Assembly (NCBI RefSeq): GCF_024502345.1
Contig: NZ_JALDNN010000001.1
Reading direction: 5' to 3' (one strand)
Length of the DNA stretch: 64,000 nt
Source of the DNA: Escherichia coli
GTDB taxonomy: Bacteria; Pseudomonadota; Gammaproteobacteria; Enterobacterales; Enterobacteriaceae
Positions 8,662-33,356 of this stretch are shown here, piece after piece. A program made the position numbers and the translations under genes. The notes beneath the pieces were generated by a model. That model did not search any database. It had not been told where the DNA came from and worked only from the letters and a program-made list of their open reading frames with translations. The stretch's first letter is position 1. Each line of letters begins with the position of its first letter.

Positions 8662-8662
8662 G

Positions 8663-11573: not shown

Positions 11574-11591
11574 ATCAGCCCGGGAATTAAC

Positions 11592-12302
11592 ATGGCAACC
11601 ACTCATTTGGATGTTTGCGCCGTGGTTCCGGCGGCCGGATTTGGCCGTCGAATGCAAACGGAATGTCCTAAGCAATATCTCTCAATCGGTAATCAAACCA
11701 TTCTTGAACACTCGGTGCATGCGCTGCTGGCGCATCCCCGGGTGAAACGTGTCGTCATTGCCATAAGTCCTGGCGATAGCCGTTTTGCACAACTTCCTCT
11801 GGCGAATCATCCGCAAATCACCGTTGTAGATGGCGGTGATGAGCGTGCCGATTCCGTGCTGGCAGGTTTGAAAGCCGCTGGCGACGCGCAGTGGGTATTG
11901 GTGCATGACGCCGCTCGTCCTTGTCTGCATCAGGATGACCTCGCGCGATTGTTGGCGTTGAGCGAAACCAGCCGCACGGGAGGGATCCTAGCCGCACCAG
12001 TGCGCGATACTATGAAACGTGCCGAACCGGGCAAAAATGCCATTGCTCATACCGTTGATCGCAACGGCTTATGGCACGCGCTGACGCCGCAATTTTTCCC
12101 TCGTGAGCTGTTACATGACTGTCTGACGCGCGCTCTAAATGAAGGCGCGACTATTACCGACGAAGCCTCGGCGCTGGAATATTGCGGATTCCATCCTCAG
12201 TTGGTCGAAGGCCGTGCGGATAACATTAAAGTCACGCGCCCGGAGGATTTGGCACTGGCCGAGTTTTACCTCACCCGAACCATCCATCAGGAGAATACAT
12301 AA
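11592..12302 (+). CDS. ispD: 2-C-methyl-D-erythritol 4-phosphate cytidylyltransferase
   Basis: 236-aa [15 protein letters not shown]-terminal motif. Confidence 0.94.
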
Positions 12303-12781
12303 TGCGAATTGGACACGGTTTTGACGTACACGCCTTTGGCGGTGAAGGCCCAATTATCATTGGTGGCGTACGCATTCCTTACAAAAAAGGATTGCTGGCG
12401 CATTCTGATGGCGACGTGGCGCTCCATGCGTTGACCGATGCATTGCTTGGCGCGGCGGCGCTGGGGGATATCGGCAAGCTGTTCCCGGATACCGATCCGG
12501 CATTTAAAGGTGCCGACAGCCGCGAGCTGCTACGCGAAGCCTGGCGTCGTATTCAGGCGAAGGGTTATACCCTTGGCAACGTCGATGTCACTATCATCGC
12601 TCAGGCACCGAAGATGTTGCCGCACATTCCACAAATGCGCGTGTTTATTGCCGAAGATCTCGGCTGCCATATGGATGATGTTAACGTGAAAGCCACTACT
12701 ACGGAAAAACTTGGATTTACCGGACGTGGGGAAGGGATTGCCTGTGAAGCGGTGGCGCTACTCATTAAGGCAACAAAATGA
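12302..12781 (+). CDS. ispF: 2-C-methyl-D-erythritol 2,4-cyclodiphosphate synthase
   Basis: 159-aa [30 protein letters not shown]... Confidence 0.95.
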
Positions 12782-13807
12782 TTGAGTTTGATAATCTCAC
12801 TTACCTCCACGGTGAACCGCAAGGCACCGGGCTGCTGAAAGCCAATCCGGAAGACTTTGTGGTGGTGGAAGATTTGGGCTTTGAGCCTGATGGTGAAGGT
12901 GAGCATATTCTGGTTAGAATCCTCAAAAACGGCTGCAATACCCGATTTGTGGCGGATGCACTGGCGAAATTCCTGAAAATTCATGCCCGTGAAGTCAGCT
13001 TCGCTGGGCAAAAAGACAAACATGCTGTTACGGAACAGTGGTTATGCGCTCGCGTGCCAGGCAAGGAAATGCCCGATCTGAGCGCCTTTCAACTGGAAGG
13101 CTGCCAGGTGCTGGAGTATGCGCGGCACAAGCGCAAGCTGCGTTTAGGCGCGCTGAAAGGTAACGCCTTTACCCTGGTTCTGCGCGAAGTGAGCAATCGC
13201 GATGACGTTGAACAACGTCTGATCGATATTTGCGTAAAAGGTGTACCGAACTACTTCGGTGCCCAACGTTTTGGGATTGGCGGTAGCAACTTGCAGGGGG
13301 CGCAGCGCTGGGCGCAAACCAATACTCCGGTGCGCGATCGCAATAAACGGAGTTTTTGGTTGTCGGCAGCCCGCAGTGCGTTGTTTAATCAGATTGTTGC
13401 TGAGCGCCTCAAAAAAGCAGACGTTAATCAAGTTGTTGACGGCGATGCGCTACAATTAGCCGGACGTGGTAGCTGGTTTGTCGCAACCACCGAAGAACTG
13501 GCGGAATTACAGCGTCGCGTTAACGATAAAGAGCTGATGATAACCGCCGCATTGCCGGGCAGTGGCGAATGGGGAACTCAGCGTGAAGCGCTGGCATTCG
13601 AACAAGCAGCTGTCGCCGCAGAAACTGAATTACAAGCTTTACTGGTGCGCGAAAAAGTTGAAGCCGCGCGCAGAGCGATGCTGCTGTATCCGCAACAATT
13701 AAGCTGGAATTGGTGGGATGACGTCACCGTAGAGATCCGTTTCTGGCTTCCGGCGGGTAGTTTTGCAACCAGCGTTGTCAGGGAACTTATCAACACAACA
13801 GGTGATT

Positions 13808-13827
<20 letters not shown>
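12778..13827 (+). CDS. truD: tRNA pseudouridine(13) synthase
   Basis: 349-aa ORF in conserved position after ispF. Confidence 0.9.
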
Positions 13828-15189
<1,362 letters not shown>

Positions 15190-15328
15190 AACGTGAGGAA
15201 ATACCTGGATTTTTCCTGGTTATTTTGCCGCAGGTCAGCGTATCGTGAACATCTTTTCCAGTGTTCAGTATGGTGCCTTGCACGGTAATTATGTCACTGG
15301 TTATTAACCAATTTTTCCTGGGGGATAA

Positions 15329-16468
15329 ATGAGCGCGGGAAGCCCAAAATTCACCGTTCGCCGCATTGCGGCTTTGTCACTGGTTTCGCTATGGCTGGCA
15401 GGCTGTTCTGACACTTCAAATCCACCGGCACCGGTCAGCTCCGTTAATGGCAATGCGCCTGCAAATACCAATTCTGGTATGTTGATTACGCCGCCGCCGA
15501 AAATGGGGACGACGTCTACAGCCCAGCAACCGCAAATTCAGCCGGTACAGCAGCCACAAATTCAGGCCACTCAACAACCGCAAATCCAGCCAGTGCAGCC
15601 AGTAGCTCAGCAGCCGGTACAGATGGAAAACGGACGCATCGTCTATAACCGTCAGTATGGGAACATTCCGAAAGGCAGTTATAGCGGCAGTACCTATACC
15701 GTGAAAAAAGGCGACACGCTTTTCTATATCGCCTGGATTACTGGCAACGATTTCCGTGACCTTGCTCAGCGCAACAATATTCAGGCACCATACGCGCTGA
15801 ACGTCGGTCAGACCTTACAGGTGGGTAATGCTTCCGGTACGCCAATCACTGGCGGAAATGCCATTACCCAGGCCGACGCAGCAGAGCAAGGAGTTGTGAT
15901 CAAGCCTGCACAAAATTCCACCGTTGCTGTTGCGTCGCAACCGACAATTACGTATTCTGAGTCTTCGGGTGAACAGAGTGCTAACAAAATGTTGCCGAAC
16001 AACAAGCCAACTGCGACCACGGTCACAGCGCCTGTAACGGTACCAACAGCAAGCACAACCGAGCCGACTGTCAGCAGTACATCAACCAGTACGCCTATCT
16101 CCACCTGGCGCTGGCCGACTGAGGGCAAAGTGATCGAAACCTTTGGTGCTTCTGAGGGGGGCAACAAGGGGATTGATATCGCAGGCAACAAAGGACAGGC
16201 AATTATCGCGACCGCAGATGGCCGCGTTGTTTATGCCGGTAACGCGCTGCGCGGCTACGGTAATCTGATTATCATCAAACATAATGATGATTACCTGAGT
16301 GCCTACGCCCATAACGACACAATGCTGGTCCGGGAACAACAAGAAGTGAAGGCGGGGCAAAAAATAGCAACCATGGGTAGCACCGGAACCAGTTCAACAC
16401 GCTTGCATTTTGAAATTCGTTACAAGGGGAAATCCGTAAACCCGCTGCGTTATTTGCCGCAGCGATAA
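15329..16468 (+). CDS. nlpD: Murein hydrolase activator lipoprotein NlpD (LysM + M23 domains)
   Basis: 379-aa ORF with lipobox LAGCS, Q/P-rich tandem repeat ([25 protein letters not shown]), C-terminal M23 peptidase-like domain. Confidence 0.95.
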
Positions 16469-16530: not shown

Positions 16531-17523
16531 ATGAGTCAGAATACGCTGAAAGTTCATGATTTAAATGAAGATGCGGAATTTGATGAGAACGGAGTTGAGG
16601 TTTTTGACGAAAAGGCCTTAGTAGAAGAGGAACCCAGTGATAACGATTTGGCCGAAGAGGAACTGTTATCGCAGGGAGCCACACAGCGTGTGTTGGACGC
16701 GACTCAGCTTTACCTTGGTGAGATTGGTTATTCACCACTGTTAACGGCCGAAGAAGAAGTTTATTTTGCGCGTCGCGCACTGCGTGGAGATGTCGCCTCT
16801 CGCCGCCGGATGATCGAGAGTAACTTGCGTCTGGTGGTAAAAATTGCCCGCCGTTATGGCAATCGTGGTCTGGCGTTGCTGGACCTTATCGAAGAGGGCA
16901 ACCTGGGGCTGATTCGCGCGGTAGAGAAGTTTGACCCGGAACGTGGTTTCCGCTTCTCAACATACGCAACCTGGTGGATTCGCCAGACGATTGAACGGGC
17001 GATTATGAACCAAACCCGTACTATTCGTTTGCCGATTCACATCGTAAAGGAGCTGAACGTTTACCTGCGAACCGCACGTGAGTTGTCCCATAAGCTGGAC
17101 CATGAACCAAGTGCGGAAGAGATCGCAGAGCAACTGGATAAGCCAGTTGATGACGTCAGCCGTATGCTTCGTCTTAACGAGCGCATTACCTCGGTAGACA
17201 CCCCGCTGGGTGGTGATTCCGAAAAAGCGTTGCTGGACATCCTGGCCGATGAAAAAGAGAACGGTCCGGAAGATACCACGCAAGATGACGATATGAAGCA
17301 GAGCATCGTCAAATGGCTGTTCGAGCTGAACGCCAAACAGCGTGAAGTACTGGCACGTCGATTCGGTTTGCTGGGGTACGAAGCGGCAACACTGGAAGAT
17401 GTAGGTCGTGAAATTGGCCTCACCCGTGAACGTGTTCGCCAGATTCAGGTTGAAGGCCTGCGCCGTTTGCGCGAAATCCTGCAAACGCAGGGGCTGAATA
17501 TCGAAGCGCTGTTCCGCGAATAA
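16531..17523 (+). CDS. rpoS: RNA polymerase sigma factor RpoS (sigma-38), apparently full length
   Basis: start at ATG 16531 ([21 protein letters not shown]...), 330 aa, no internal stop. Confidence 0.96.
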
Positions 17524-17537: not shown

Positions 17538-17575
17538 GAAAGGCCAGTCTCAAGCGAGGCTGGCCTTTTTTCTTT
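17538..17575 (+). terminator. Rho-independent terminator after rpoS
   Basis: stem aggccag ... ctggcct followed by tttttt. Confidence 0.75.
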
Positions 17576-17643
17576 TGTTTGGGAAGCATGTGTTTTTGTC
17601 GCCTGGATAAGACACGTCAGCCTCCTACCCGGCAATCAGCATT

Positions 17644-18084
17644 CTATGTGCTCATCATCTTGCGCACCAACTGCATAAACAGCTCCTGCTCTTCTACACT
17701 CAAACGCCCCAAAAATTCCTCATCCACGCGGTCACCAATCGGTATCGCCGCAGCAAGTATCTTTTCTCCTTCGGCAGTCAGCCAGACAAAGCGTCGCCGC
17801 TTATCAGCGGCGTCATGTTCACGTCTGACTAAGCCACGATTTTCCATTCTTGCCAACATTTCTGCCAGCGTTGCTTTGGTGCTGACTGCTGCTTCTATCA
17901 GTGCCACCTGTTCGATACCAGGCTTATCAGCAATGGCACGCATCACCGCATACTGTGGTTTGGTCAGGTCAGGTAACTCGTGCTGCCAGCGAGCCGTGTG
18001 CTGCTGAAAAAGCTGTCGTAACTGATGGAACGCTTTATTTCGTAACGCCATGTAAACTCCGGGCAAACTATCTGCCGCTATCAT
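17644..18084 (-). CDS. MarR/SlyA-family transcriptional regulator (rpoS-mutS variable region)
   Basis: 146-aa ORF (start possibly at internal MALRNK); winged-helix MarR-like sequence; divergent from decarboxylase cluster. Confidence 0.72.
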   Translation of the reverse strand: MIAADSLPGVYMALRNKAFHQLRQLFQQHTARWQHELPDLTKPQYAVMRAIADKPGIEQVALIEAAVSTKATLAEMLARMENRGLVRREHDAADKRRRFVWLTAEGEKILAAAIPIGDRVDEEFLGRLSVEEQELFMQLVRKMMST

Positions 18085-18197
18085 AACGGTTTTTCAGTGA
18101 CGAAGGGGATGTTGTTACTTTTCAGTGCTTGCCGCAATGAGAACAGAGGCGTATTTTAATAATAACGTTCGTATACGAACAATTAAGAGAGTAAGCA

Positions 18198-18791
18198 ATG
18201 AAACTGATCGTCGGGATGACAGGGGCTACCGGTGCGCCTCTTGGTGTGGCATTACTGCAAGCGCTGCGGGAGATGCCGAATGTCGAGACTCATCTGGTGA
18301 TGTCGAAGTGGGCGAAAACCACCATTGAACTGGAAACGCCTTACAGCGCCCGCGATGTTGCTGCCCTCGCTGACTTCAGCCATAACCCGGCGGATCAGGC
18401 GGCGACCATCTCCTCAGGTTCCTTTCGTACCGACGGCATGATCGTTATTCCGTGCAGTATGAAAACGCTCGCCGGTATCCGCGCTGGTTACGCTGATGGC
18501 CTGGTAGGGCGCGCGGCGGACGTCGTGCTCAAAGAAGGCCGCAAACTGGTGCTGGTGCCGCGTGAAATGCCGCTTAGCACCATCCATCTCGAAAATATGC
18601 TCGCACTTTCACGCATGGGCGTGGCGATGGTGCCGCCGATGCCTGCCTTTTATAACCATCCCGAAACGGTAGATGACATTGTCCACCATGTAGTAGCCCG
18701 CGTGCTGGATCAATTTGGCCTCGAACATCCCCACGCCAGGCGCTGGCAAGGATTGCCGCAGGCCGGGAATTTTTCTCAGGAGAATGAATAA
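18198..18791 (+). CDS. ecdB: UbiX/Pad1-like flavin prenyltransferase
   Basis: 197-aa ORF MKLIVGMTGATGAPLGVALLQALREMPNVETHLVMSKWA... typical UbiX family. Confidence 0.82.
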   Translation: MKLIVGMTGATGAPLGVALLQALREMPNVETHLVMSKWAKTTIELETPYSARDVAALADFSHNPADQAATISSGSFRTDGMIVIPCSMKTLAGIRAGYADGLVGRAADVVLKEGRKLVLVPREMPLSTIHLENMLALSRMGVAMVPPMPAFYNHPETVDDIVHHVVARVLDQFGLEHPHARRWQGLPQAGNFSQENE

Positions 18792-20217
18792 TGGCATTTG
18801 ATGATTTACGCAGCTTTTTACAGGCGCTTGATGACCACGGCCAGTTACTGAAAATCAGCGAAGAGGTGAACGCGGAACCGGATCTGGCTGCCGCTGCCAA
18901 CGCCACCGGGCGTATCGGCGATGGTGCACCGGCGCTGTGGTTTGATAATATTCGCGGTTTTACCGATGCCCGCGTGGCGATGAATACCATCGGTTCCTGG
19001 CAGAACCACGCGATTTCCCTCGGCCTGCCGCCAAACACTCCGGTCAAAAAGCAGATTGATGAGTTTATCCGCCGCTGGGATAACTTCCCGATTGCCCCGG
19101 AGCGCCGCGCCAATCCTGCCTGGGCGCAGAACACCGTTGATAGCGACGAGATTAACCTGTTCGATATCCTGCCGCTGTTTCGTTTAAACGATGGCGATGG
19201 CGGTTTCTATCTCGACAAAGCGTGCGTGGTTTCCCGCGATCCGCTCGACCCAGATAACTTCGGCAAGCAGAACGTCGGCATCTACCGCATGGAAGTGAAG
19301 GGCAAGCGTAAGCTCGGCCTGCAACCGGTGCCGATGCACGATATCGCCCTGCATCTGCATAAAGCAGAAGAGCGCGGTGAAGATCTGCCGATTGCGATCA
19401 CGCTCGGTAACGATCCGATCATCACGCTGATGGGGGCCACGCCGCTGAAATACGATCAGTCTGAGTATGAAATGGCAGGCGCGCTGCGTGAAAGCCCGTA
19501 CCCGATCGCCACCGCCCCGCTGACCGGTTTTGATGTGCCGTGGGGTTCAGAAGTGATCCTCGAAGGGGTCATCAAAAGCCGTAAACGCGAAATCGAGGGG
19601 CCGTTCGGTGAGTTTACCGGGCACTACTCCGGCGGGCGTAACATGACCGTGGTGCGTATCGATAAAGTCTCTTACCGCACCAGGCCGATTTTCGAATCGC
19701 TGTACCTCGGCATGCCGTGGACCGAAATCGACTACCTGATGGGGCCAGCCACCTGCGTACCGCTGTATCAACAACTGAAAGCCGAGTTCCCGGAAGTGCA
19801 GGCGGTAAACGCCATGTACACCCACGGCCTGCTGGCGATTATCTCCACCAAAAAACGCTACGGCGGCTTTGCCCGCGGGTGGGCCTGCGTGCGATGACCA
19901 CGCCGCACGGTCTGGGCTACGTAAAGATGGTGATTATGGTCGATGAAGACGTTGACCCGTTCAACCTGCCGCAGGTGATGTGGGCGCTCTCCTCGAAAGT
20001 GAACCCGGCAGGGGATTTGGTGCAGTTGCCGAATATGTCCGTGCTGGAACTCGACCCAGGCTCAAGCCCGGCAGGGATCACCGACAAGCTGATTATCGAC
20101 GCCACCACGCCTGTTGCCCCGGACAACCGTGGTCACTACAGCCAGCCGGTGGTGGATTTGCCGGAAACCAAAGCCTGGGCTGAAAAACTGACCACTATGC
20201 TGGCTGCACGTAAATAA
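18791..20217 (+). pseudogene. ecdC: UbiD-family (hydroxyaryl acid) decarboxylase, interrupted by a frameshift near 19877
   Basis: two overlapping ORFs in different frames (18791..19897 and 19717..20217) together form one UbiD-like protein; joining sequence gcccgcgggtgggcctgcgtgcgatg suggests a 1-bp deletion. Confidence 0.75.
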
Positions 20218-20227
20218 GGAGAACAAG

Positions 20228-20464
20228 ATGATTTGTCCACGTTGTGCCGATGAACAGATTGAAGTGATGGTGAAATCGCCGGTGAAAGATGTCTGGACGG
20301 TATATCAGTGCCAGCATTGCCTTTATACCTGGCGCGATACCGAACCGCTACGCCGCACCAGTCGCGAACATTACCCGGAAGCGTTCCGCATGACGCAGAA
20401 AGATATTGATGATGCGCCAATGGTGCCGAGCATCCCGCCGCTGCTGGCGGAAGGTAAGCGCTAA
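20228..20464 (+). CDS. ecdD: Small subunit of decarboxylase (BsdD/EcdD-like, Cys-rich)
   Basis: 78-aa ORF MICPRCADEQIEV...YQCQHCLYTW, immediately after UbiD-like gene. Confidence 0.7.
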   Translation: MICPRCADEQIEVMVKSPVKDVWTVYQCQHCLYTWRDTEPLRRTSREHYPEAFRMTQKDIDDAPMVPSIPPLLAEGKR

Positions 20465-20466
20465 AT

Positions 20467-20498
20467 AAAAAGGTCCGATGCCCATCGGACCTTTTTAT
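20467..20498. terminator. Bidirectional rho-independent terminator between convergent ecdD and ygbN
   Basis: perfect hairpin aaaaaggtccgatgcccatcggacctttttatt flanked by A-run and T-run. Confidence 0.7.
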
Positions 20499-20503
20499 TA
20501 AGG

Positions 20504-21868
20504 TCAAATTACCGCCCATACGCACCAGGTAATTAAGAATCCGGTAAAACCGAGAATGGTCGTTAACACTGTCCAGGTTTTCAGACCGTCTGCTACCGAC
20601 AACCCCAGATATTTGGTCACAATCCAGAACCCTGAGTCATTAATATGTGACGCGCCAAGCCCACCAAAGCAGGCTGCCAGCGTCACCAATACGCACTGAA
20701 TCGGATTCAATCCCATCACCGCTTCTGAGAGTAACCCGCCGGTTGTCAGGATTGCTACGGTTGCTGACCCCTGCGATGCACGCAGCGCCAGTGAAATAAT
20801 AAATGCGGCTGGTAACAGAGGCAGGTCAATCATTTGTAGCATGTTGGCAAGGGCTTTGCCGACGCCCGATTCCACCAGCACTTTGCCAAATACCCCTCCA
20901 GCACCAGTAACCAAAATCACTACCGCCGCAGTGGGAAGGGCTGAGCCCATAATGTCGCTGGTGTGTTGTAAGCTCCAGCCGCGACGTAAAGCCAATAACC
21001 AGAATGCCAGCACCAGCGCAATCATTAGAGCTACCATTGGTGAGCCGATCAGCTGTAGCGTACCAAGCAGGGGATGCGAAGGCGGCATCAGTGTTGCGGA
21101 AACCGTACCCGCCATGATAATCGCGATAGGAATAACAATTAGCGAGGTGACCAGCGCGACGCCCGGTGGATTTATTTTATCGCTTAATTTTGTCGCGCCT
21201 TCCTCACTGGCCGGAGCCAGTTGCATCTGTTCCAGTACTTCCACCGACATCGCATATTGGCGTTTATTGATTATTTTCGCTGCAAAGTAGCCAACAACCC
21301 CTACGGGAATAGAAATCGCAATACCGATGATGGTTAGCCAGCCGATGTCTGCGTGGAGTAACCCCGCTGCGGCGACAGGGCCTGGATGCGGCGGTACCGC
21401 CACGTGAACAGTGAGCATGATCCCAGCGACAGGCAGGCCAAATTTGAGTGGCGATATTTTGGCTACCTTGGCAAAACCGTAAATGATTGGCGCAAGAATA
21501 ATAAAGCCGACATCAAAGAAGACGGGAATACCGAGGAAGAACGCTGCCAGAGTCAGCGCAGCGATAGTTCGTTTGTCACCTAACTTGCGACTGAAATAAT
21601 TAGCCAGTGATTCTGCACCACCAGAGTGTTCGATCATACGCCCCAGCATAGCGCCCAGACCAATAATAATAGTGACGGAACCAAGCACACCGCCCATCCC
21701 GGCGATCATCACTTTACCCACTTCGCCCGCCGGTATACCCGCCGCAAGTGCGACTAACAGGCTGACGAGGAGCAGAGCAACGAATGGTTGTACCTTTGCC
21801 TTGATGACCAGCAGCAACAGCATGATTACGCCAGCTAACGCAATGCATAACAATGTAATTGTGGACAT
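20504..21868 (-). CDS. ygbN: GntP-family permease
   Basis: 454-aa polytopic membrane ORF, GntP family. Confidence 0.85.
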   Translation of the reverse strand: MSTITLLCIALAGVIMLLLLVIKAKVQPFVALLLVSLLVALAAGIPAGEVGKVMIAGMGGVLGSVTIIIGLGAMLGRMIEHSGGAESLANYFSRKLGDKRTIAALTLAAFFLGIPVFFDVGFIILAPIIYGFAKVAKISPLKFGLPVAGIMLTVHVAVPPHPGPVAAAGLLHADIGWLTIIGIAISIPVGVVGYFAAKIINKRQYAMSVEVLEQMQLAPASEEGATKLSDKINPPGVALVTSLIVIPIAIIMAGTVSATLMPPSHPLLGTLQLIGSPMVALMIALVLAFWLLALRRGWSLQHTSDIMGSALPTAAVVILVTGAGGVFGKVLVESGVGKALANMLQMIDLPLLPAAFIISLALRASQGSATVAILTTGGLLSEAVMGLNPIQCVLVTLAACFGGLGASHINDSGFWIVTKYLGLSVADGLKTWTVLTTILGFTGFLITWCVWAVI

Positions 21869-21956
21869 GGGAAACCCTGTCTGAAAGTTATAGTTAACCT
21901 ACCCCATCCGTAGATGGGGGGATGTATGGGTACGTTGTAATTAGGGATTTAACGAA

Positions 21957-22733
21957 TTAGCGCCAGGCGTCAAACCAGCCAAGCCCTTCTTCGGTGAGGC
22001 CACGAGGTTTATATTCACAACCGATCCAGCCCTGATATCCCACCTCATCGAACAGGCGGAACAGCCACGGATAGTTGATTTCTCCATCGTCCGGTTCATG
22101 TCGATCAGGTAGTCCGGCAATTTGTACGTGCGCATATTTCCCAGCGTAGTCGCGGATTAAATGCGTCAGGTTGCCATCTACTTTTTGCGCATGAAAAGTA
22201 TCTAGTTGAATAAACACGTTATCTCGCGCAACCTCTTCAACAATAGCCAGTGCCTGATACTGGCTGGAGAAGAGATAATGAGGCTTAACGTCGGGGCTGA
22301 GTGCTTCAACTAATATTCGCTTGCCGTGTAGCGCAAAGCGGTCGGCCGCGTAGCGGAGATTATCGATAAATACTGCCCGGTACCGTTCAGCGTCTTCGCC
22401 AGCGGGCACGACGCCTGCCATCACATGGACTTGTTCACAATTGAGCGCCAATGCATATTCCAGTGCCAGGTCGATGTCTGCGTGTGCTTCGTGCTCACGT
22501 CCGGGAAGGGCGGATAATCCCCATTCCCCCGCATTAATATCTCCGGGAGCGGTATTGAACAGCGCCAGTGTCAGATGGTTTTGCTCCAGTTGCTTTTGGA
22601 TTTGCAGGGTGGAGTAGTCATAGGGAAACAGAAATTCCACAGCATCGAACCCGGCTTTTCGCGCTGCGGCGAAGCGTTCAATAAAAGGCACTTCGGTGAA
22701 CATCATGGATAAATTAGCTGCAAAACGAGGCAT
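21957..22733 (-). CDS. ygbM: Hydroxypyruvate isomerase-like (TIM-barrel)
   Basis: 258-aa ORF, xylose-isomerase-like TIM barrel; ygb operon position. Confidence 0.85.
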
Positions 22734-22737
22734 TGCA

Positions 22738-23376
22738 TTAACTCCTTAATTCCGCAATTTCACCTGCGGTCAGATAACGGATCGGGCGGTCACCGAGAAT
22801 AAAAATCAGCTTTGCCGTTTCCTCCAGCTCTTCCATATTGTTGGCGGCTTCTTGCAGGCTTTCACCGCAAACCACTGGGCCATGATTTGCCAGTAAAAAA
22901 GCCTGATTGTCTGCTGCCAGTTCCGCCAGATCCTGTGCGATGCGTTTATCGCCCGGTCGGTAATAAGGCACCAGCGGGACATTTCCCATCCGCATCACCA
23001 CGTATGGTGTGAACGGACGAATAACGTTGCTGCTGTCCAGCCCTTGCAGGCAGGAAAGCGCCGTCGACCATGTGCTGTGCAAATGCACCACCGCTTTACA
23101 GCGCGGATTGTTGCGATACAGCGCCAGATGAAAGAGCACCTCTTTCGAGGGTTTGTCACCACTTAACCATTCGCCATCCGCGGCGACTTTGGAAAGCCGC
23201 TGCGGATCGAGATTGCCCAGGCATGAACCTGTCGGTGTCGCCAGTAAATTCCCGTCAGGTAAAAGCAGCGACAGATTGCCAGCCGAACCGGTTGCATAGC
23301 CGCGCTGAAAGAATGAACTGGCAATCCGCGTCATCTCCTCTCGCAAAGACTGCTCTACTTTTGCGAAATCGCTCAT
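22738..23376 (-). CDS. ygbL: Class II aldolase/adducin-family protein
   Basis: 212-aa ORF, class II aldolase fold motifs. Confidence 0.85.
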
Positions 23377-24635
23377 GATAAAAACTCTCTTTGGGCTCGT
23401 GAAAAAAAGGCTTCATCACCGAAGTTGCCAGATTTAAGGGCGAGTGAGACAGGCTTATCCAGTGCGTTTACCCACGGCACGCCGGGGGAAATGGTTGGGC
23501 CAATATGAAACCCTTTTATGCCCAGGCTCTGTGTGACTACGCCGGAGGTCTCACCGCCTGCGACAATAAAGCGTGTCACGCCTTCCGCTGCTAACCGCGC
23601 CGCTAGTTGAGAAAACAGAGTTTCTACTGCCTGACTGGCTTTTTGTGCACCGTATTGCTGTTGAATTGCTGCCAATGCGTCAGTGCTGGCGGTGGCAAAA
23701 ACCAGTGGAGCAAGTACACTTTCCTGGCCCAGAACCCACTCTGCCAGTTCGTGTGCATAAGCGGCCAGAGTTTCGGTTGAGAGGCAGCGTGCCACATCAA
23801 CTTCACGGGCTGGTGCAATTTGACGGTAATGTGCCACCTGGCGGTTGGTCATTTGAGAGCATGAACCGGAGAGCACTACGCCGCGCCCAGCGAGCGGACG
23901 CCCTGCTTCGCGAGCCTGGTTACCGTTTTCTTGCGCCCACTGCCGGGCCAGGCCAATCGCCAGACCAGAACCGCCCGTTACCAGTGGGGCATCGCGCAAG
24001 GCTTCTCCCTGAATTTCCAGATGGTGTTCGGTCAGCGCATCAAGCACCGCGTAGCGGTAGCCTTCTTGCTGTAAGCGAGCCAGCTCTTGACGAACGGCAT
24101 CCACACCTTGTTCGAAAACATGTGCCGAAACGACGCCGCAGCGCCCTGTGGATTGCGCTTCAACCAGACGGGGAAGATAGCTGTCGGTCATGGGATTTAC
24201 CGGGTGATGGCGCATCCCGGATTCGGCCAGCAGTTGATTCATTACGAACAAATACCCCTGATAAACCGTACGTCCGTTGACCGGCAGGGCCGGAGAGAAG
24301 ACCGTAAACGGCGTGTCGAGAGCATCCATTAATGCATCGGTAACCGGGCCAATATTACCTTTCGCCGTACTGTCGAAAGTAGAGCAGTATTTGAAATAGA
24401 TCTGTTTGCAACCTTGCTGTTGCAACCAGCTCAGAGCCGCCAGCGATTGCTGTGTGGCTTCAACCACCGGACAGGAGCGCGTTTTCAGGCTGATCACCAG
24501 TGCGTCGATTGCTTCCGGCATTTTACCTGTTGGAACACCGTTAATTTGTACCGTTGGTAGACCGTTTTCCACCAGAAAACTGGCGATATCCGTCGCGCCG
24601 GTAAAATCATCGGCGATAACGCCAATCTTGATCAT
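23373..24635 (-). CDS. ygbK: Four-carbon acid sugar kinase family protein
   Basis: 420-aa ORF beginning MIKIGVIADDFTGATD (DUF1537-type N-terminus). Confidence 0.83.
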   Translation of the reverse strand: MIKIGVIADDFTGATDIASFLVENGLPTVQINGVPTGKMPEAIDALVISLKTRSCPVVEATQQSLAALSWLQQQGCKQIYFKYCSTFDSTAKGNIGPVTDALMDALDTPFTVFSPALPVNGRTVYQGYLFVMNQLLAESGMRHHPVNPMTDSYLPRLVEAQSTGRCGVVSAHVFEQGVDAVRQELARLQQEGYRYAVLDALTEHHLEIQGEALRDAPLVTGGSGLAIGLARQWAQENGNQAREAGRPLAGRGVVLSGSCSQMTNRQVAHYRQIAPAREVDVARCLSTETLAAYAHELAEWVLGQESVLAPLVFATASTDALAAIQQQYGAQKASQAVETLFSQLAARLAAEGVTRFIVAGGETSGVVTQSLGIKGFHIGPTISPGVPWVNALDKPVSLALKSGNFGDEAFFSRAQREFLS

Positions 24636-25540
24636 GATTTCGCTCCCGGTAGAGTGATGCCAGAGAAAATCTTGATAACTGCGCTATCGTCTTCTTTCCC
24701 GTAACCCGCGTTACTGGCGCTGGTGAACATATTCAATGCTGTTGAGGCCAATGGCAGCGGGAAGTGCAGGGCTTTGGCTGTATCGGCAACCAGACCAAGA
24801 TCCTTAACAAAAATATCGACGGCTGAATGCGGGGTGTAATCGCCATCCACCACATGACGCATCCGGTTTTCGAACATCCAGGAATTTCCGGCGGCATTGG
24901 TCACGACGTCATACATCACATCCAGCGGGATCCCCGCACGGGCTGCAAGTGCCATCGCTTCGGCTCCGGCAGCAATATGTACGCCCGCTAACAACTGGTG
25001 AATAATTTTTACGGTCGAACCTAGTCCCGGTTCTGCACCTATGCGATAAACTTTTCCGGCAACGGCTTCCAGCACGGGTGCCAGTCGTTCAAAGGCAATA
25101 TCGCTACCGGAGGCCATGACAGTCATTTCACCGTTAGCGGCTTTTACTGCACCACCAGAAACTGGCGCATCCAGCATTTCCAGATCGAATCCAGCCAGAG
25201 CGGTAGCAATTTCTTGCGCATCAGCACTAGCGATAGTGGAAGAAACCATTACTGCCGTACCGGGTTTCAGATGTTGTGCAACGCCTGTTTCACCAAACAG
25301 CACCTGTTTAACCTGGGCCGCATTGACCACCAGCACCAGCAGAGCGTCCAGTTTTTCGGCAAACGTCGCGGCGTTATCAGAAACCCCGCAAGCACCTGCC
25401 TCTTTCAACGTAGCGCAGGCATTGCTGTTCAGGTCTGCGCCCCAGGTAGAAAGACCTGCGCGGACACATGACAGTGCTGCTCCCATTCCCATTGACCCTA
25501 AGCCAACGATACCGACATGAAACTCAGATCCCGTTTTCAT
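24632..25540 (-). CDS. ygbJ: NAD-dependent 3-hydroxyisobutyrate dehydrogenase-like oxidoreductase
   Basis: 302-aa ORF with Rossmann motif GIVGLGSMGMG. Confidence 0.85.
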   Translation of the reverse strand: MKTGSEFHVGIVGLGSMGMGAALSCVRAGLSTWGADLNSNACATLKEAGACGVSDNAATFAEKLDALLVLVVNAAQVKQVLFGETGVAQHLKPGTAVMVSSTIASADAQEIATALAGFDLEMLDAPVSGGAVKAANGEMTVMASGSDIAFERLAPVLEAVAGKVYRIGAEPGLGSTVKIIHQLLAGVHIAAGAEAMALAARAGIPLDVMYDVVTNAAGNSWMFENRMRHVVDGDYTPHSAVDIFVKDLGLVADTAKALHFPLPLASTALNMFTSASNAGYGKEDDSAVIKIFSGITLPGAKS

Positions 25541-25705
25541 CTGCTCTCCTTGTTAATTTAAGTGATATTTTGTTTGATATTGTTAATATAAGCGCTGGAA
25601 GATAACGATATGGTGAGCTGATTCACATAAATTAACATTGTGTGTTATTTTATGTGAACTAAGCGTTAGTTGCGCCGCGCACGTTTCGCAGGCAAATAGC
25701 GTAGA

Positions 25706-26503
25706 ATGTCAGCAGGACAAAGGAAGGAGCAAAAGTTGATACCCGTAGAGCGTCGCCAAATCATCCTTGAGATGGTAGCTGAAAAAGGCATTGTCAGTAT
25801 TGCTGAACTAACGGACAGAATGAATGTGTCACATATGACCATTCGTCGGGATTTACAAAAACTGGAGCAGCAGGGAGCCGTTGTGCTGGTGTCCGGAGGC
25901 GTCCAGTCTCCGGGACGCGTGGCGCATGAACCTTCTCATCAGGTAAAAACTGCGCTGGCAATGACGCAAAAAGCGGCTATTGGCAAGCTGGCGGCAAGTC
26001 TTGTTCAGCCGGGAAGTTGTATCTATCTGGATGCGGGAACGACCACGTTAGCGATAGCACAGCATCTGATTCACATGGAGTCACTGACTGTGGTCACAAA
26101 CGATTTCGTTATTGCAGACTACTTGCTCGACAACAGTAATTGCACAATTATTCACACTGGCGGTGCAGTGTGTCGGGAAAACCGTTCCTGTGTCGGGGAA
26201 GCCGCTGCGACCATGCTGCGCAGCCTGATGATTGATCAGGCTTTTATTTCTGCATCGTCATGGAGTGTGCGGGGGATTTCTACGCCAGCGGAAGATAAAG
26301 TCACGGTGAAACGGGCGATTGCCAGTGCCAGCCGCCAGCGAGTTTTGGTCTGTGATGCGACGAAATATGGTCAGGTGGCGACATGGCTGGCGTTACCATT
26401 AAGCGAGTTTGATCAGATTATCACAGACGACGGTTTGCCGGAGAGTGCCAGTCGCGCGCTGGCGAAGCAGGATCTCTCTTTGCTGGTAGCGAAAAATGAA
26501 TAA
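25706..26503 (+). CDS. ygbI: DeoR-family transcriptional regulator (start codon uncertain)
   Basis: DeoR HTH (SIAELTDRMNVSHMTIRRDLQKLE) and sugar-binding C-terminal domain; divergent from ygbJ. Confidence 0.8.
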   Translation: MSAGQRKEQKLIPVERRQIILEMVAEKGIVSIAELTDRMNVSHMTIRRDLQKLEQQGAVVLVSGGVQSPGRVAHEPSHQVKTALAMTQKAAIGKLAASLVQPGSCIYLDAGTTTLAIAQHLIHMESLTVVTNDFVIADYLLDNSNCTIIHTGGAVCRENRSCVGEAAATMLRSLMIDQAFISASSWSVRGISTPAEDKVTVKRAIASASRQRVLVCDATKYGQVATWLALPLSEFDQIITDDGLPESASRALAKQDLSLLVAKNE

Positions 26504-26553
26504 TGGCCTGCAATAACATTTGGTTACTCATGCTTCACAGAAGAAGCATGAGA

Positions 26554-27210
26554 CTACTTTATTTTATAAAATGACAGCCGCCCGCTTTTCGGCGTGCCGG
26601 TATCAATATAAATCTGGTTAGCGAACGTCTGAATGTTATCAAACATCATATGTCCAAATATAAAATAATCAGCGCCGTTTATTTGTTGTAACTCGCCATT
26701 AAGCGATTTCTGCACACGATCAACAGGCCAGAGTAATTCGCTCTCCGCTATTTCTTTACCAAAGAGATATTCACTCCCCGGATAATCTGCATGTGCGATG
26801 ACATATTTTATGTTGTCGTTAGTGATTTCAATAATATGTGGAAGGTGATGGAATTTCAGCAACAGATCTGTAGCTTCTTTTTGCTCTGAATCATTTAAAT
26901 CGAAAAACCAGTCACCACCGCTGGCAAGCCACATATTGCCATCGCCGGTCGCGAACGCATCCAGCGCCATTGCTTCGTGGTTGCCTTTAACGGAGATAAA
27001 CCAGGGCTGGTTTAGCAGGCGCAGGACGTCAAGACTCTCCGGCCCACGATCAATATTATCGCCGACAGAAATAAGTAAGTCGGTTTCAGGGCAAAAAGAG
27101 AGTTGATGTAAGCGGGATTGTAATAATTGATATTCACCATGAATATCACCAACGACCCATATATGGCGATAGTGATGGGCATTAATTTTTTGATAGCGTG
27201 TAGATGGCAT
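26554..27210 (-). CDS. pphB: Serine/threonine protein phosphatase 2
   Basis: 218-aa ORF with metallophosphatase motifs (GDIHG, GDNIDRG, GNHE). Confidence 0.88.
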   Translation of the reverse strand: MPSTRYQKINAHHYRHIWVVGDIHGEYQLLQSRLHQLSFCPETDLLISVGDNIDRGPESLDVLRLLNQPWFISVKGNHEAMALDAFATGDGNMWLASGGDWFFDLNDSEQKEATDLLLKFHHLPHIIEITNDNIKYVIAHADYPGSEYLFGKEIAESELLWPVDRVQKSLNGELQQINGADYFIFGHMMFDNIQTFANQIYIDTGTPKSGRLSFYKIK

Positions 27211-27315
27211 GGTTTTACCCTGTAAAATAAGCTTTCCTATTATACAGGGTGTTTTTATTTTATTCGTCAGTTGTCGTTAATATTCCCGATAGCAAAAGAC
27301 TATCGGGAATTGTTA

Positions 27316-29877
27316 TTACACCAGGCTCTTCAAGCGATAAATCCATTCCAGCGCCTGACGCGGAGTCAGTGAATCCGGGTCCAGGTTTTCCAGAGCTTCG
27401 ACCGCTGGCGAGGTTTCTTCCGGTACTGACAGCAAAGACATTTGCGTACCATCCACTTGCGTAGCGGCGGCGTTCGGCGAAATGCTTTCCAGCTCACGCA
27501 GTTTTTGCCGTGCGCGCTTAATCACCTCTTTTGGCACGCCTGCCAGAGCTGCAACCGCCAGGCCGTAGCTTTTGCTCGCCGCGCCATCCTGCACGCTATG
27601 CATAAAGGCAATGGTGTCTCCGTGCTCCAGCGCATCGAGATGCACGTTGGCGACGCCTTCCATTTTTTCCGGTAACTGGGTCAGCTCGAAATAGTGGGTA
27701 GCAAACAGCGTCAATGCCTTAATCTTATTCGCCAGATTTTCTGCGCACGCCCACGCCAGCGACAGACCATCGTAAGTGGACGTTCCACGCCCGATCTCAT
27801 CCATCAATACCAGACTGTACTCGGTGGCGTTATGTAAAATATTGGCGGTTTCGGTCATCTCCACCATAAAGGTTGAGCGCCCGGACGCCAGGTCATCTGC
27901 CGCGCCTACGCGGGTAAAGATGCGATCGATAGGTCCAATCTCGACTTTTTGTGCCGGTACATAGCTGCCGATGTAGGCCATCAGCGCAATCAGTGCGGTC
28001 TGGCGCATATAGGTACTTTTACCGCCCATGTTCGGACCGGTGATGATCAACATGCGGCGCTGCGGCGACAGATTCAGCGGGTTGGCGATAAATGGCTCAT
28101 TCAGTACTTGTTCAACTACCGGATGGCGACCTTCGGTAATGCGAATGCCCGGTTTATCAATGAAGGTCGGGCAGGTGTAGTTCAGGGTATAGGCCCGTTC
28201 CGCCAGGTTCACCAGCACGTCGAGTTCCGCCAGCGCGCTCGCGCTCTGTTGCAACGCTTCCAGATGCGGCAACAGCAGGTCGAACAACTCTTCATAAAGC
28301 TGTTTTTCCAGTGCCAGTGCTTTGCCTTTTGAGGTGAGAACTTTATCTTCGTACTCTTTTAGCTCTGGAATGATGTAGCGCTCGGCGTTTTTCAGCGTCT
28401 GGCGACGCATGTAGTTGATGGGTGCCAGATGGCTTTGCCCACGGCTGATTTGAATGTAGTAGCCGTGCACCGCATTAAAGCCAACTTTCAGCGTGTCCAG
28501 GCCGGTACGTTCACGCTCGCGGACTTCCAGACGCTCCAGATAATCGGTCGCGCCGTCAGCCAGCGCGCGCCACTCATCCAGCTCTTCGTTATAGCCCGAT
28601 GCGATAACACCACCGTCGCGTACCAGCACCGGCGGTGTGTCGATGATTGCTCGCTCCAGCAGATCGCGCAGCTCGGCAAACTCGCCCATCTTCTCACGTA
28701 GCGCCTGTACCGGTGCACTATCGACAGTTTCTAACTGCGCACGCAGCTCCGGCAGTTGCTGGAAAGCGTGGCTCATACGGGCCAGATCGCGTGGGCGAGC
28801 AGTTCGTAAAGCCAGACGTGCCAGAATACGTTCCAGGTCGCCGACCTGACGCAGTACCGGCTGTAGCCCGGCGGTGAAATCCTGCAATGCGCCAATAGTT
28901 TGCTGGCGCTCAAGCAACACGCGGGTATCGCGCACTGGCATATGCAGCCAGCGTTTCAGCATACGGCTGCCCATCGGCGTGACGGTGCAGTCGAGCACAG
29001 AAGCCAGCGTATTTTCCGCACCACTCGCCAGGTTCTGGGTGATTTCCAGATTACGACGCGTCGCGGCATCCATAATGATGCTGTCCTGCTCACGTTCCAT
29101 GGTGATGGAACGAATATGCGGCAGAGTCGTACGTTGGGTATCTTTCGCATACTGCAACAGACAACCGGCAGCACAAAGTCCGCGCGGCGCGTTCTCGACG
29201 CCAAAACCGACCAGATCGCGAGTGCCAAATTGTAGATTCAACTGCTGGCGCGCGGTGTCGATTTCAAACTCCCACAGCGGGCGACGGCGCAGGCCGCGAC
29301 GGCCTTCAATTAACGACATTTCAGCAAAATCTTCTGCATACAGCAGTTCCGCAGGATTAGTGCGTTGCAGTTCTGCCGCCATCGTTTCCCGGTCAGCCGG
29401 TTCGCTCAGGCGAAAACGACCGGAACTGATATCCAGCGTCGCGTAGCCGAAACCTTTGCTGTCCTGCCAGATAGCCGCCAGCAGGTTGTCCTGACGCTCC
29501 TGCAACAGGGCTTCATCGCTGATGGTGCCTGGCGTAACGATACGCACAACTTTGCGCTCAACCGGACCTTTGCTGGTCGCCGGATCGCCAATTTGTTCGC
29601 AGATGGCAACGGACTCGCCCTGATTCACCAGTTTGGCGAGGTAGTTTTCCACCGCATGGTAGGGAATCCCCGCCATCGGGATCGGCTCTCCCGCCGAAGC
29701 ACCGCGTTTGGTCAGTGAAATATCCAGCAGTTGCGACGCGCGTTTTGCGTCGTCATAAAACAGTTCATAAAAATCACCCATCCGGTAAAACAGCAGGATC
29801 TCGGGATGCTGGGCTTTCAGCTTGAGATACTGCTGCATCATGGGGGTGTGCGAGTCTAAATTTTCTATTATACTCAT
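27316..29877 (-). CDS. mutS: DNA mismatch repair protein MutS
   Basis: 853-aa ORF; Walker [10 protein letters not shown], conserved N-terminal mismatch-binding region. Confidence 0.97.
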
Positions 29878-29971
29878 CGGCTTGTGATGTCCATTCTCTT
29901 AATTTTTAATGAGTTAGTGGTTTTTATGGTTATCATTATGTTTCACGTTGTCTCATCGAATATCATGAAAT

Positions 29972-30073: not shown

Positions 30074-31375
30074 GTGCATGATAACGGAGTCTTTATGGCA
30101 GGAAAACAAGAGGGAAAGCCACTTTCGTTTAAAGGGGTAGAAATGATGAAGCCAGGCGATAAAGATAAGGCTGATGTAGGCGAAAATCGTGGCTTACGTG
30201 TCTCCTGTGGTGCAACTGGTGTTAAGTCTTTTTTCTACCGTTACACAAGTCCTCTGACTGGCAAACTTGCTCAGGTTAAAATTGGTAACTTCCCGCAGAC
30301 TTCTCTCGCCGCTGCACGTCTTAAACTTCATGAATTAAAGCTCCTCCGGCAGGAAGGTCGGTGCCCTGCGTCAGAGCTTAAGCAAGATAAGCTCCAGCGT
30401 GCGATTGAAGCTGAACAGGCTAAGATCCCTGAATTGACCGTACAGGGATTAGTTGAACTGTATCTTACTGAACGTATTGAGGATCGTAAAACGAAGGACG
30501 GGAAGGTCATTCCCGGTGCCAGAAAACCGAAAGGACAGGCTGAGGTTCGTCGTACTCTCTATGGTGACGCTGTTAAAAGTTTAGGAACCCGGAATGCTGC
30601 TGAGATAACGCGCCAGGATGTTATTAATTTAATCAATGGCATTGTAGCTCGGGGCGCAACCGTACAGGCAGGGAATGTACTGAGAGAACTTTCACTCGCA
30701 TATGAATTTGCAATTGGACTTGGGCGCTTTGATGACAGTTTTGCGAATCCAGCGCTGTTAGCAAAATCTAGCTTACGACAGACCAGAATCAAGCTCACAA
30801 ATGGACGTGGAACACGAGTACTGAGTGAGGACGAGCTTGCAAAATTCCTTAAATGGCTACCGGGTTCGGCTTACACGCCAACGATCAAAAACGTGTTACG
30901 TCTGACTCTCTGGACCGGGTGTCGTACCGGTGAAGTCTGCAATATGGCATGGAAGGATGTTGATCTTGAAAAAGGCACCATTCATCTTAGAGAAACCAAG
31001 ACTGGAGTAGAGCGTTACGTTCAGTTATCGGATCAAGCGATCGACTTTCTCAAGGTTCTACGCCTTACCTCTGACAAATATCTATTCCCTTCACAAGCCA
31101 CTAAAAAGCCAATCCAGCAGAAGTATCTAACTGAAAACTCATGGCGTTTACGTGAAAGCGGTCAAATGCTTGATATACCTCATTGGACGCCGCATGATCT
31201 GCGTCGTACAGTACGAACGGGCTTATCTCGTTTGCAGTGTCCAAATGAGGTGGCTGAGGCCGTATTGGGGCATACACGAGGCGGTGTTGAAGGGATTTAT
31301 AATCTGTATAAGTATGATGCTGAGTGTAGGAAGTGGTTGCAGGTGTGGGCGGATTATTTAGATACTTTAACGTAA
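30074..31375 (+). CDS. Tyrosine-type integrase, P4-like family
   Basis: 433-aa ORF; C-terminal catalytic region with R...HDLRRT...LGH...Y pattern (TPHDLRRTVRTGLSRL, LGHTRGGVEGIYNLY). Confidence 0.85.
   Translation: MHDNGVFMAGKQEGKPLSFKGVEMMKPGDKDKADVGENRGLRVSCGATGVKSFFYRYTSPLTGKLAQVKIGNFPQTSLAAARLKLHELKLLRQEGRCPASELKQDKLQRAIEAEQAKIPELTVQGLVELYLTERIEDRKTKDGKVIPGARKPKGQAEVRRTLYGDAVKSLGTRNAAEITRQDVINLINGIVARGATVQAGNVLRELSLAYEFAIGLGRFDDSFANPALLAKSSLRQTRIKLTNGRGTRVLSEDELAKFLKWLPGSAYTPTIKNVLRLTLWTGCRTGEVCNMAWKDVDLEKGTIHLRETKTGVERYVQLSDQAIDFLKVLRLTSDKYLFPSQATKKPIQQKYLTENSWRLRESGQMLDIPHWTPHDLRRTVRTGLSRLQCPNEVAEAVLGHTRGGVEGIYNLYKYDAECRKWLQVWADYLDTLT

Positions 31376-32161: not shown

Positions 32162-33356
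<1,195 letters not shown>

Follow-up and report, generated by a model that had tools for sequence, protein, structure and literature searches.

That the interval between rpoS and mutS is polymorphic in Escherichia coli was described as early as 2000, and the polymorphism has served as a typing marker ever since. A long mutS–rpoS region was published for EPEC1, EPEC2, and EHEC2 (Herbelin 2000, as cited in PMC5491219), and the citing paper gives its 2.9-kb segment as hosA-pad1-yclC. Four patterns of the o454–nlpD region have been distinguished, of which pattern IV consists of slyA-kpdBCD plus o454 and is found in several phylogroups (Ewers 2014, PMC4209514); it is also called the E2348/69 or EPEC type. 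Part of this region has a described counterpart in the HosA/hydroxyarylic acid decarboxylase operon of E. coli UMN026 (Roy and Ranjan 2016), in which, according to work citing that study, HosA acts as a 4-hydroxybenzoate-responsive repressor of the decarboxylase genes. The name HosA for this MarR regulator is that of the literature (PMC5491219; bioRxiv 10.1101/2024.04.24.590444), and substrates and activity have been reported for EcdCD of O157:H7 (PMC6644310). The phenolic acid decarboxylases of the BsdBCD/VdcBCD type (structure 7AE4) have the same three-gene B/C/D organization, although they come from other organisms and genomic contexts; intact EcdC of E. coli F9792 aligns with this structure over residues 3–471 (E = 3e-160).

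Gene order and junctions of the rpoS–mutS interval

We analyzed a 64,000-nucleotide stretch of E. coli DNA (contig NZ_JALDNN010000001.1), here called the window. The features of the interval are collected in Table 1. The gene order, reading from rpoS, is hosA, ecdB/ecdC/ecdD, ygbN-ygbM-ygbL-otnK-ltnD, ygbI, pphB, and mutS, and the identity of every gene in 17644–27210 is backed by NCBIfam and Pfam profiles. Taking our explanation as a whole, we consider it very probable that the rpoS–mutS intergenic region of E. coli is present at 17.5–27.2 kb in its long allelic form. A preliminary description of the window had claimed this long variant, and the open reading frames and profiles bear it out, with the K-12-type block and the MarR/decarboxylase segment both present.

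Table 1. Features of the rpoS–mutS interval and its borders (positions in the window).
Feature	Positions	Strand	Basis
rpoS, full length (330 aa, E33)	16531..17523	+	NCBIfam RpoS equivalog, 604.6 bits
rpoS terminator hairpin; final bases common to K-12 ahead of the 2.9-kb segment	17524..17569	+	alignment to K-12 rpoS-ygbN intergenic region
~2.9-kb segment missing in K-12 MG1655 (11-bp filler instead), present in O157:H7	17570..20465	.	alignments
hosA, MarR/SlyA-family repressor, 135 aa	17644..18051	-	Pfam MarR
Perfect 14-bp palindrome GTTCGTATACGAAC, HosA operator, 17 bp upstream of ecdB ATG	18167..18180	.	matches published oligonucleotides
ecdB, UbiX-type flavin prenyltransferase, subunit B, 197 aa, intact	18198..18791	+	NCBIfam VdcB, 312.2 bits vs cut-off 290
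ecdC (VdcC/UbiD), whole split gene	18791..20217	+	
ecdC N-terminal fragment, 368 aa: native residues 1-362, out-of-frame tail GWACVR, then TGA	18791..19897	+	
ecdC 1-bp deletion site, CGCGCGG to CGCGGG (~19877)	19875..19880	+	
ecdC C-terminal fragment, 107 aa, native residues 369-475	19894..20217	+	
ecdD, small subunit D, 78 aa, intact	20228..20464	+	NCBIfam VdcD, 120.5 bits vs cut-off 30
~6.1-kb block ygbN to ygbI, missing in O157:H7 (~37-bp filler instead), present in K-12	20467..26554	.	alignments
Hairpin between convergent ecdD and ygbN, terminator-like stem; K-12 homology restarts, O157 homology stops	20472..20491	.	alignments
ygbN, GntP-family transporter, 454 aa	20504..21868	-	NCBIfam PRK09821, 828 bits
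ygbM / otnI, 2-oxo-tetronate isomerase, 258 aa	21957..22733	-	NCBIfam OxoTetrIsom, 395 bits vs cut-off 325
ygbL / otnC, 3-oxo-tetronate 4-phosphate decarboxylase, 212 aa	22738..23376	-	NCBIfam OxoTetrPhDc, 335 bits vs cut-off 250
otnK / ygbK, 3-oxo-tetronate kinase, 420 aa	23373..24635	-	NCBIfam OxoTetrKin, 600 bits vs cut-off 350
ltnD / ygbJ, L-threonate dehydrogenase, 302 aa	24632..25540	-	NCBIfam ThreonDh, 474 bits vs cut-off 350
ygbI, DeoR-family repressor, 255 aa	25736..26503	+	NCBIfam trans_reg_YgbI, 482 bits vs cut-off 400
pphB, Ser/Thr protein phosphatase 2, 218 aa	26554..27210	-	NCBIfam PRK09968, 473 bits vs cut-off 332
mutS, 853 aa, intact ORF; first ~14 codons come from adjoining island	27316..29877	-	

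The allele is o454–nlpD pattern IV (PMC4209514). The interval is bounded by the 3' ends of rpoS and mutS; the 2.9-kb group of slyA/hosA, pad1/kpdB, yclC/kpdC, and kpdD, missing in K-12, adjoins rpoS; and o454/ygbN with the ~6-kb K-12 block lies directly beside the decarboxylase genes (ecdD ends at 20464, ygbN at 20504). The gene order and the 2.9-kb and ~6-kb blocks are those of the published long region. The window differs from it as follows: ecdC/yclC is frameshifted, identity to the strains compared is only 96.6–98.8% for the alleles of the 2.9-kb segment, and mutS adjoins a 20.8-kb island at its far end. This island carries an integrase and sits in the mutS 5' end. The long variant with intact ecdC is present in E. 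coli F9792 and FDAARGOS_944. The long form is already known, and the interval is ordinary apart from the 1-bp deletion in ecdC; that the window has the long form matters little in itself.

The preliminary description had also stated that rpoS is full length, and the reading frame contains no internal stop over its 330 aa. The protein is a 100% match to that of E. coli F9792 (WP_000081550.1), which is also annotated in KMi029 and O157:H7 WS4202, and the single difference from MG1655 is Q33E (Q33 in K-12, E33 in the window).

The window combines the blocks that K-12 and O157:H7 carry separately. The order in K-12 MG1655 (pattern II) is rpoS-ygbN...ygbI-pphB-mutS, and alignment with MG1655 finds no MarR/decarboxylase segment there, as had been claimed; the ygbN–ygbI–pphB block is the same, with 99–100% identity per gene (96% for pphB), the YgbN proteins are identical, and K-12 ygbK encodes 388 aa vs 420 aa in the window. 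O157:H7 WS4202 (pattern I) has the order rpoS-MarR-B-C-D-pphB-mutS, in agreement with the earlier view of the segment as O157-type. Its hosA-ecdBCD, with intact ecdC, adjoins rpoS and is 97.4% identical over the segment, but the 6.1-kb ygbN–ygbI block is missing and pphB follows ecdD directly. The fillers at the K-12 and O157 junctions (11 and ~37 bp) are short and unrelated, so neither junction is a plain excision from the window's allele.

Three modules and their predicted functions

The interval holds three unrelated modules between two core genes and is no single system. Module 1 comprises hosA and the divergent ecdBCD, module 2 ygbI and ltnD-otnK-otnC-otnI-ygbN, and module 3 pphB; the biochemical roles proposed here are taken from published work on orthologues.

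In module 1, hosA (-) is divergent from ecdB (+, start 18198), and in F9792 and O157:H7 the annotation of its counterpart reads MarR family regulator, with a length of 135 aa. The palindrome GTTCGTATACGAAC and its flanks agree with the published oligonucleotides for the HosA binding site (PMC6261655 supplement). The UMN026 operon has the same divergent layout of regulator and operon, with the same 14-bp palindromic operator a short way ahead of the first decarboxylase gene, whereas in the window the gene for the catalytic subunit is interrupted and the regulation is predicted from sequence. By analogy, HosA bound to the palindrome would repress the operon, and 4-hydroxybenzoate would release HosA and derepress it. 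EcdB would make prenylated FMN for the UbiD-type EcdC, which would work with the small EcdD, and together the three would catalyze the reversible decarboxylation of 4-hydroxybenzoate and vanillate.

In module 2, the enzymes expected of an L-threonate/D-erythronate cluster (dehydrogenase, DUF1537 kinase, class II aldolase-type decarboxylase, and isomerase) all score above their equivalog cut-offs, and a published reference on the DUF1537 kinase pathway supports the assignment of this tetronate cluster. Module 2 would constitute a DeoR-repressed pathway converting the four-carbon acid sugars L-threonate and D-erythronate to dihydroxyacetone phosphate.

The ecdC frameshift

The preliminary description had listed UbiX, UbiD, and small-subunit genes. 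All three are present by NCBIfam, but the frameshift in the UbiD-like gene had been missed. Subunits B and D are found complete, and a full-length UbiD-type subunit C is lacking because of the 1-bp deletion. At 606.1 bits, the N-terminal fragment falls short of the VdcC cut-off (650), and its match spans model positions 2–362 of 467; the C-terminal fragment, which has been called as a gene of 107 aa, scores 164.8 bits. The break falls inside Pfam UbiD_C (residues 315–438), at model positions ~51–60 of 127. Restoring one C gives a 475-aa ecdC reading frame with just three substitutions relative to intact alleles. The deletion thus appears to be recent; it cuts the protein within its C-terminal domain, and we infer that the decarboxylase is most likely inactive in the window strain. 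Unlike the BsdBCD/VdcBCD-type enzymes, the window copy is in two fragments. hosA, the operator, ecdB, and ecdD are all still intact despite the broken ecdC.

Could the split ecdC nevertheless be functional, with coupled translation of two pieces that assemble into an active UbiD-type enzyme? The ATG of the C-terminal fragment overlaps the TGA of the N-terminal fragment as ATGA, just residues 363–368 are lost, so that 469 of the 475 native residues are kept, and there are no other disabling mutations in the ecdC fragments, hosA, ecdB, or ecdD. Furthermore, the allele persists in several independent samples. However, the protein is interrupted midway through the UbiD_C domain, away from a domain boundary, and the lack of further decay equally fits a recent mutation, the repaired protein being 3 aa from intact alleles. 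No UbiD enzyme that is naturally split in this way is known to us, and a functional two-piece enzyme is unlikely. Slightly less likely again is the broader proposal that the fragments, with EcdD and prFMN made by EcdB, form an active, naturally split UbiD decarboxylase, maintained in a lineage of gut E. coli that has no representative among the 5,426 complete genomes.

That the frameshift is a sequencing or assembly error, the gene being intact in the organism, is highly improbable: the change is a single base within a short CG repeat, and the exact deletion sequence has no match in the 5,426 complete E. coli genomes, but the identical 368-aa truncated product occurs on at least 10 independent contigs (NCBI, ENA, and Logan). 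The deletion is therefore a real lineage mutation. The sources include NCBI assembly GCA_050022275.1, three ENA metagenome assemblies, and one Logan run; over the full 2,980 bp aligned, GCA_050022275.1 and ERZ28657917 show no difference from the window, and ERZ19693311 carries the deletion too, its background differing slightly. Annotation pipelines would label the window's ecdC a pseudogene, so predictions of 4-hydroxybenzoate or paraben detoxification for this strain need caution.

Ancestry and distribution of the long form

The MarR/decarboxylase segment had been called extra in the preliminary description, which holds relative to K-12 only; by synteny, it is the conserved state across the Enterobacteriaceae. 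The long region is said to have been judged ancestral already in Herbelin's abstract of 2000. A genome collection was scanned for ecdC, and the best 80 loci, with one genome per species, were compared. rpoS lies within 5 kb of ecdC in 51 of these 80, mutS in 47, both in 42, and one or both in 56; the ygb block is missing from most. The order rpoS-hosA-ecdBCD-mutS occurs in representative species of Citrobacter, Klebsiella, Enterobacter, Kluyvera, Leclercia, Kosakonia, Atlantibacter, and Salmonella arizonae/diarizonae, among others. Thus, hosA-ecdBCD beside rpoS is the ancestral enterobacterial state, and this synteny across genera makes the K-12 state a deletion. In K-12-type strains, a deletion from the rpoS terminator to the ecdD/ygbN hairpin would have removed ~2.9 kb, and O157-type strains would have lost the 6.1-kb ygb block; the window strain retained both.

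A preprint argues that HosA came from Shigella dysenteriae (bioRxiv 10.1101/2024.04.24.590444), and hosA-ecdBCD might be viewed as a horizontally acquired island, both here and throughout pathogenic E. coli. Some E. coli carry the segment and others do not, and the G+C of ecdBC is slightly raised (0.57–0.59 vs ~0.52 in the flanks), which alone could suggest a foreign origin. However, no integrase, IS element, or att repeat is present at the segment borders, which coincide with the hairpins after rpoS and ecdD, and the broad synteny contradicts acquisition of HosA from Shigella. We therefore regard horizontal acquisition as very improbable and retain the ancestral state as the explanation.

Among the 5,426 complete E. 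coli genomes, the long form is found in 1,582 (~29%) and an O157-like form in ~15%, and the 2.9-kb segment is missing in ~55%. At ≥80% coverage, the 2.9-kb segment is present in 2,380 of these genomes, and a query spanning the ygb block plus pphB (20480–27300) in 4,575. Hence, the long form, proposed earlier as a useful lineage marker, is coarse and mainly excludes the K-12/ECOR-A, O157, and typical B2 types. The lineage of the window strain has no close relative among the complete genomes. A Cas3::Cas2 deletion fusion occurs elsewhere in the window; together with the ecdC frameshift it makes the lineage recognizable, both lesions being private to it and both also seen in human gut metagenomes.

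Composition of the rpoS-mutS region

The genes between rpoS and mutS were identified from an ORF list and family searches (see the table). The preliminary description, made from the sequence alone, had placed the same genes at the same positions and had called the region the long variant, in which a MarR-family gene and decarboxylase genes, absent from K-12 but present in O157:H7, accompany the ygb genes. Comparison with K-12 MG1655 and O157:H7 WS4202 agrees with this. In MG1655, rpoS is followed directly by ygbN to ygbI, pphB and mutS; in WS4202, the order is rpoS, the MarR gene, the B, C and D genes, and then directly pphB and mutS. By junction alignment, the segment missing from K-12 spans about 17570-20465; it begins just past the rpoS terminator and ends at the ecdD/ygbN hairpin, and 11 unrelated bases stand there in K-12. 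The segment missing from O157, at about 20467-26554, extends from that hairpin to the pphB stop codon and is replaced in O157 by about 37 unrelated bases. The window holds both the 2.9-kb segment and the ygb block, as do F9792 and FDAARGOS_944.

Features of the rpoS-mutS region and of the island in mutS (window positions)
Feature	Position	Strand
rpoS	16531-17523	+
hosA, MarR-family, 135 aa	17644-18051	-
ecdB, UbiX-type	18198-18791	+
ecdC, UbiD-type, frameshifted	18791-20217	+
ecdD, small subunit, 78 aa	20228-20464	+
ygbN, ygbM, ygbL, otnK (ygbK), ltnD (ygbJ), in order	20504-25540	- (all)
ygbI	25736-26503	+
pphB	26554-27210	-
mutS	27316-29877	-
Island cargo, whole span	30074-50555	
Tyrosine integrase	30074-31375	
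Second integrase	38577-39524	
N6-methylase	43923-45458	
S subunit	45458-47143	
Restriction-associated AAA ATPase, PtuA-like	47153-48757	
PtuB-like HNH protein	48751-49599	
Fic protein	49938-50555	
JAB, DUF2787, CbtA-like and DUF905 genes (island cargo)		

The distribution of these blocks was counted in 5,426 complete RefSeq E. coli genomes at a threshold of 80% coverage or more. The whole 11-kb region is found in 1,582 genomes, the 2.9-kb segment in 2,380, and the ygb block plus pphB (query 20480-27300) in 4,575; roughly 29% of the genomes are long, 15% are O157-like and 55% do not have the 2.9-kb segment. Ewers et al. 2014 (PMC4209514) defined four o454-nlpD patterns, of which pattern IV (E2348/69, EPEC group), found across several non-B2 phylogroups, has slyA-kpdB-kpdC-kpdD beside o454/ygbN. 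The window shows exactly this arrangement. For the hosA-pad1-yclC segment of 2.9 kb that EPEC carries downstream of rpoS, PMC5491219 cites Herbelin et al. 2000. The long rpoS-mutS region is a polymorphism already described, and the earlier interpretation of it is supported; the ecdC frameshift and the synteny evidence presented below are small additions to a known feature.

RpoS is full length, as had been proposed, with 330 aa and no stops. It is the same as the F9792 protein (annotated WP_000081550.1), an accession also carried by KMi029 and O157:H7 WS4202, and differs from MG1655 RpoS only by Q33E. In FDAARGOS_944, which combines the long variant with an unbroken ecdC, rpoS (locus L010, 13175-14167) contains an internal stop and is annotated as a pseudogene, a polymorphism not shared by the strain of the window. 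The ygb genes exceed the NCBIfam equivalog cut-offs for the L-threonate/3-oxo-tetronate pathway (Zhang et al. 2016). OtnK/YgbK has 420 aa in the window (23373-24635), F9792, KMi029 and FDAARGOS_944, and its gene overlaps ygbL. The annotated K-12 ygbK (MG1655 locus L002, 7336-8502) encodes 388 aa and is separated from ygbL by 91 bp, which makes the protein of K-12 appear C-terminally truncated. No known structured RNAs were found in the rpoS-mutS region, nor any tRNAs; the sole Rfam match in the window is sok (3388-3544).

The MarR protein is HosA, a reported repressor of the non-oxidative hydroxyarylic acid decarboxylase operon that 4-hydroxybenzoate releases (literature citing Roy and Ranjan 2016). 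A perfect palindrome, GTTCGTATACGAAC, is located at 18167-18180, 17 bp upstream of ecdB, and it agrees, together with its flanks, with the published HosA-site oligonucleotides. EcdCD of E. coli O157:H7 is listed as a 4-hydroxybenzoate/vanillate decarboxylase (PMC6644310).

Ancestry of the hosA-ecdBCD segment and source lineage

One genome per bacterial species was scanned with intact EcdC, and the best 80 loci were considered. Among these, rpoS lies within 5 kb of ecdC in 51, mutS in 47, and both in 42. Loci with these neighbours belong to Citrobacter, Pseudocitrobacter, Klebsiella, Enterobacter, Kluyvera, Leclercia, Kosakonia, Atlantibacter, Franconibacter and Phytobacter, and also to Salmonella enterica subsp. 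arizonae and diarizonae. Phytobacter and Salmonella carry the block in the opposite orientation with respect to rpoS. The majority arrangement is rpoS-hosA-ecdBCD-mutS without the ygb block. In the more distant Enterobacterales Pantoea, Rahnella and Erwinia, the cluster is present but located elsewhere. This synteny across genera indicates that the 2.9-kb segment, "extra" only in relation to K-12, is an old resident of the site and the K-12 state a loss. The same synteny makes it very unlikely that hosA-ecdBCD is a recent horizontal island, a reading also countered by the junction alignment, in which no mobility genes or repeats were found at the segment borders. The ancestry suggested by synteny contradicts the claim in a preprint that HosA was acquired from Shigella. 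It agrees with Herbelin et al. 2000, who reportedly regarded the long region as ancestral.

The O157-like order rpoS-hosA-ecdBCD-pphB-mutS is also seen in Escherichia sp. E1V33. A 6-kb contig in a 'Citrobacter sp.' MAG encodes proteins 92-99% identical to those of E. coli over hosA-ecdBCD-pphB-mutS, which suggests that it is a mis-binned E. coli contig.

Core-gene identities are 98.6-100% to E. coli strains vs 91-97% to Escherichia sp. E1V33, and these per-gene values show E. coli in the strict sense. The identities form a mosaic and are lowest in the hosA-ecd segment (96.6-98.8%). Among complete genomes, the best identity is only 98.9% for the rpoS-mutS region and 98.2% for 1-16400, where O157/O55:H7 rank top. 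An identity of 99.7% is reached in the hyp-hyc genes by FDAARGOS_943 and FDAARGOS_944 alone, FDAARGOS_944 being the closest complete genome for that flank. The 5,426 complete genomes include no close relative of this lineage, and the window contains no Clermont phylogroup markers; phylogroup E or D/F would be compatible with its nearest neighbours. Contig JBAOKM010000018.1 of GCA_050022275.1 runs collinear with the window.

The frameshift in ecdC

The decarboxylase genes are present as first described, but the preliminary description overlooked that ecdC is broken. One base is missing at about 19877 relative to intact alleles (CGCGCGG to CGCGGG). The N-terminal fragment (18791-19897) retains residues 1-362, followed by GWACVR and a stop. 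Restoring one C yields an ORF of 475 aa with only three residue differences from intact alleles, which argues that the lesion is recent.

A sequencing error is rejected, because at least 10 independent contigs, derived from an NCBI assembly, a Logan run and ENA gut metagenomes, encode the identical 368-aa truncated product. Furthermore, full alignment of GCA_050022275.1 and ERZ28657917 with the window shows no DNA difference over 2,980 bp, and ERZ19693311 has the same deletion. An exact 61-mer across the deletion was found in none of the 5,426 complete E. coli genomes. The C-terminal fragment (19894-20217) begins at the native Met369, with its ATG overlapping the TGA of the first fragment (ATGA), and the break falls within the Pfam UbiD_C domain (residues 315-438). 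A functional two-piece enzyme formed by these fragments has a low probability, and we take the split ecdC to be a lineage-specific pseudogene.

The island in mutS and the CRISPR-Cas remnant

A 20.8-kb integrase island occupies the 5' end of mutS (29835-50816), and an imperfect direct repeat of about 93 bp bounds it on both sides (29835-29927 and 50724-50816). The left att-like copy derives from the island and shares 88% identity with the native sequence; mutS now takes from it codons 1 to about 14 (changes A3I, F7L, A9S) and everything upstream. The original 5' end and the sequence before it, presumably with the promoter, are shifted to the ygbA side. The mutS ORF is still full length at 853 aa. 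Integrases targeting mutS have been noted previously (PMC7192596), and fhlA-mutS is a known hotspot (PMC7232297). From its cargo, the island looks like a defence island. At 99.7% identity, it is found in only 4-5 of the 5,426 complete E. coli genomes (KMi029, ET490, ES10, MSB1_9D); of these carriers, KMi029 was inspected at the flank, where its rpoS junction is of the K-12 type. An IS5-family transposase gene (32194-33210, 338 aa) interrupts an island gene whose KMi029 copy is intact, explaining roughly 1.2 kb of extra length relative to that strain, and probably accounts for the many multi-copy and plasmid matches.

The stretch separating cysH from the cas3 remnant holds a hok/sok toxin-antitoxin locus (3388-3680), with a sok match of 106.7 bits; matching contigs have an annotated Hok/Gef gene of 50 aa. 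The CRISPR-Cas locus, of type I-E (3874-6135, 6231-6384), has shrunk to one 753-aa in-frame Cas3::Cas2 fusion, in which Cas3 (residues ~14-674) is joined to the C-terminal ~67 residues of Cas2e. Genes casA-E and cas1 are deleted, and an array of 3 repeats and 2 spacers is left after the fusion. The exact fusion protein occurs on at least 16 public contigs, of which one is the GCA_050022275.1 contig that also bears the ecdC frameshift and others are from human gut metagenomes.
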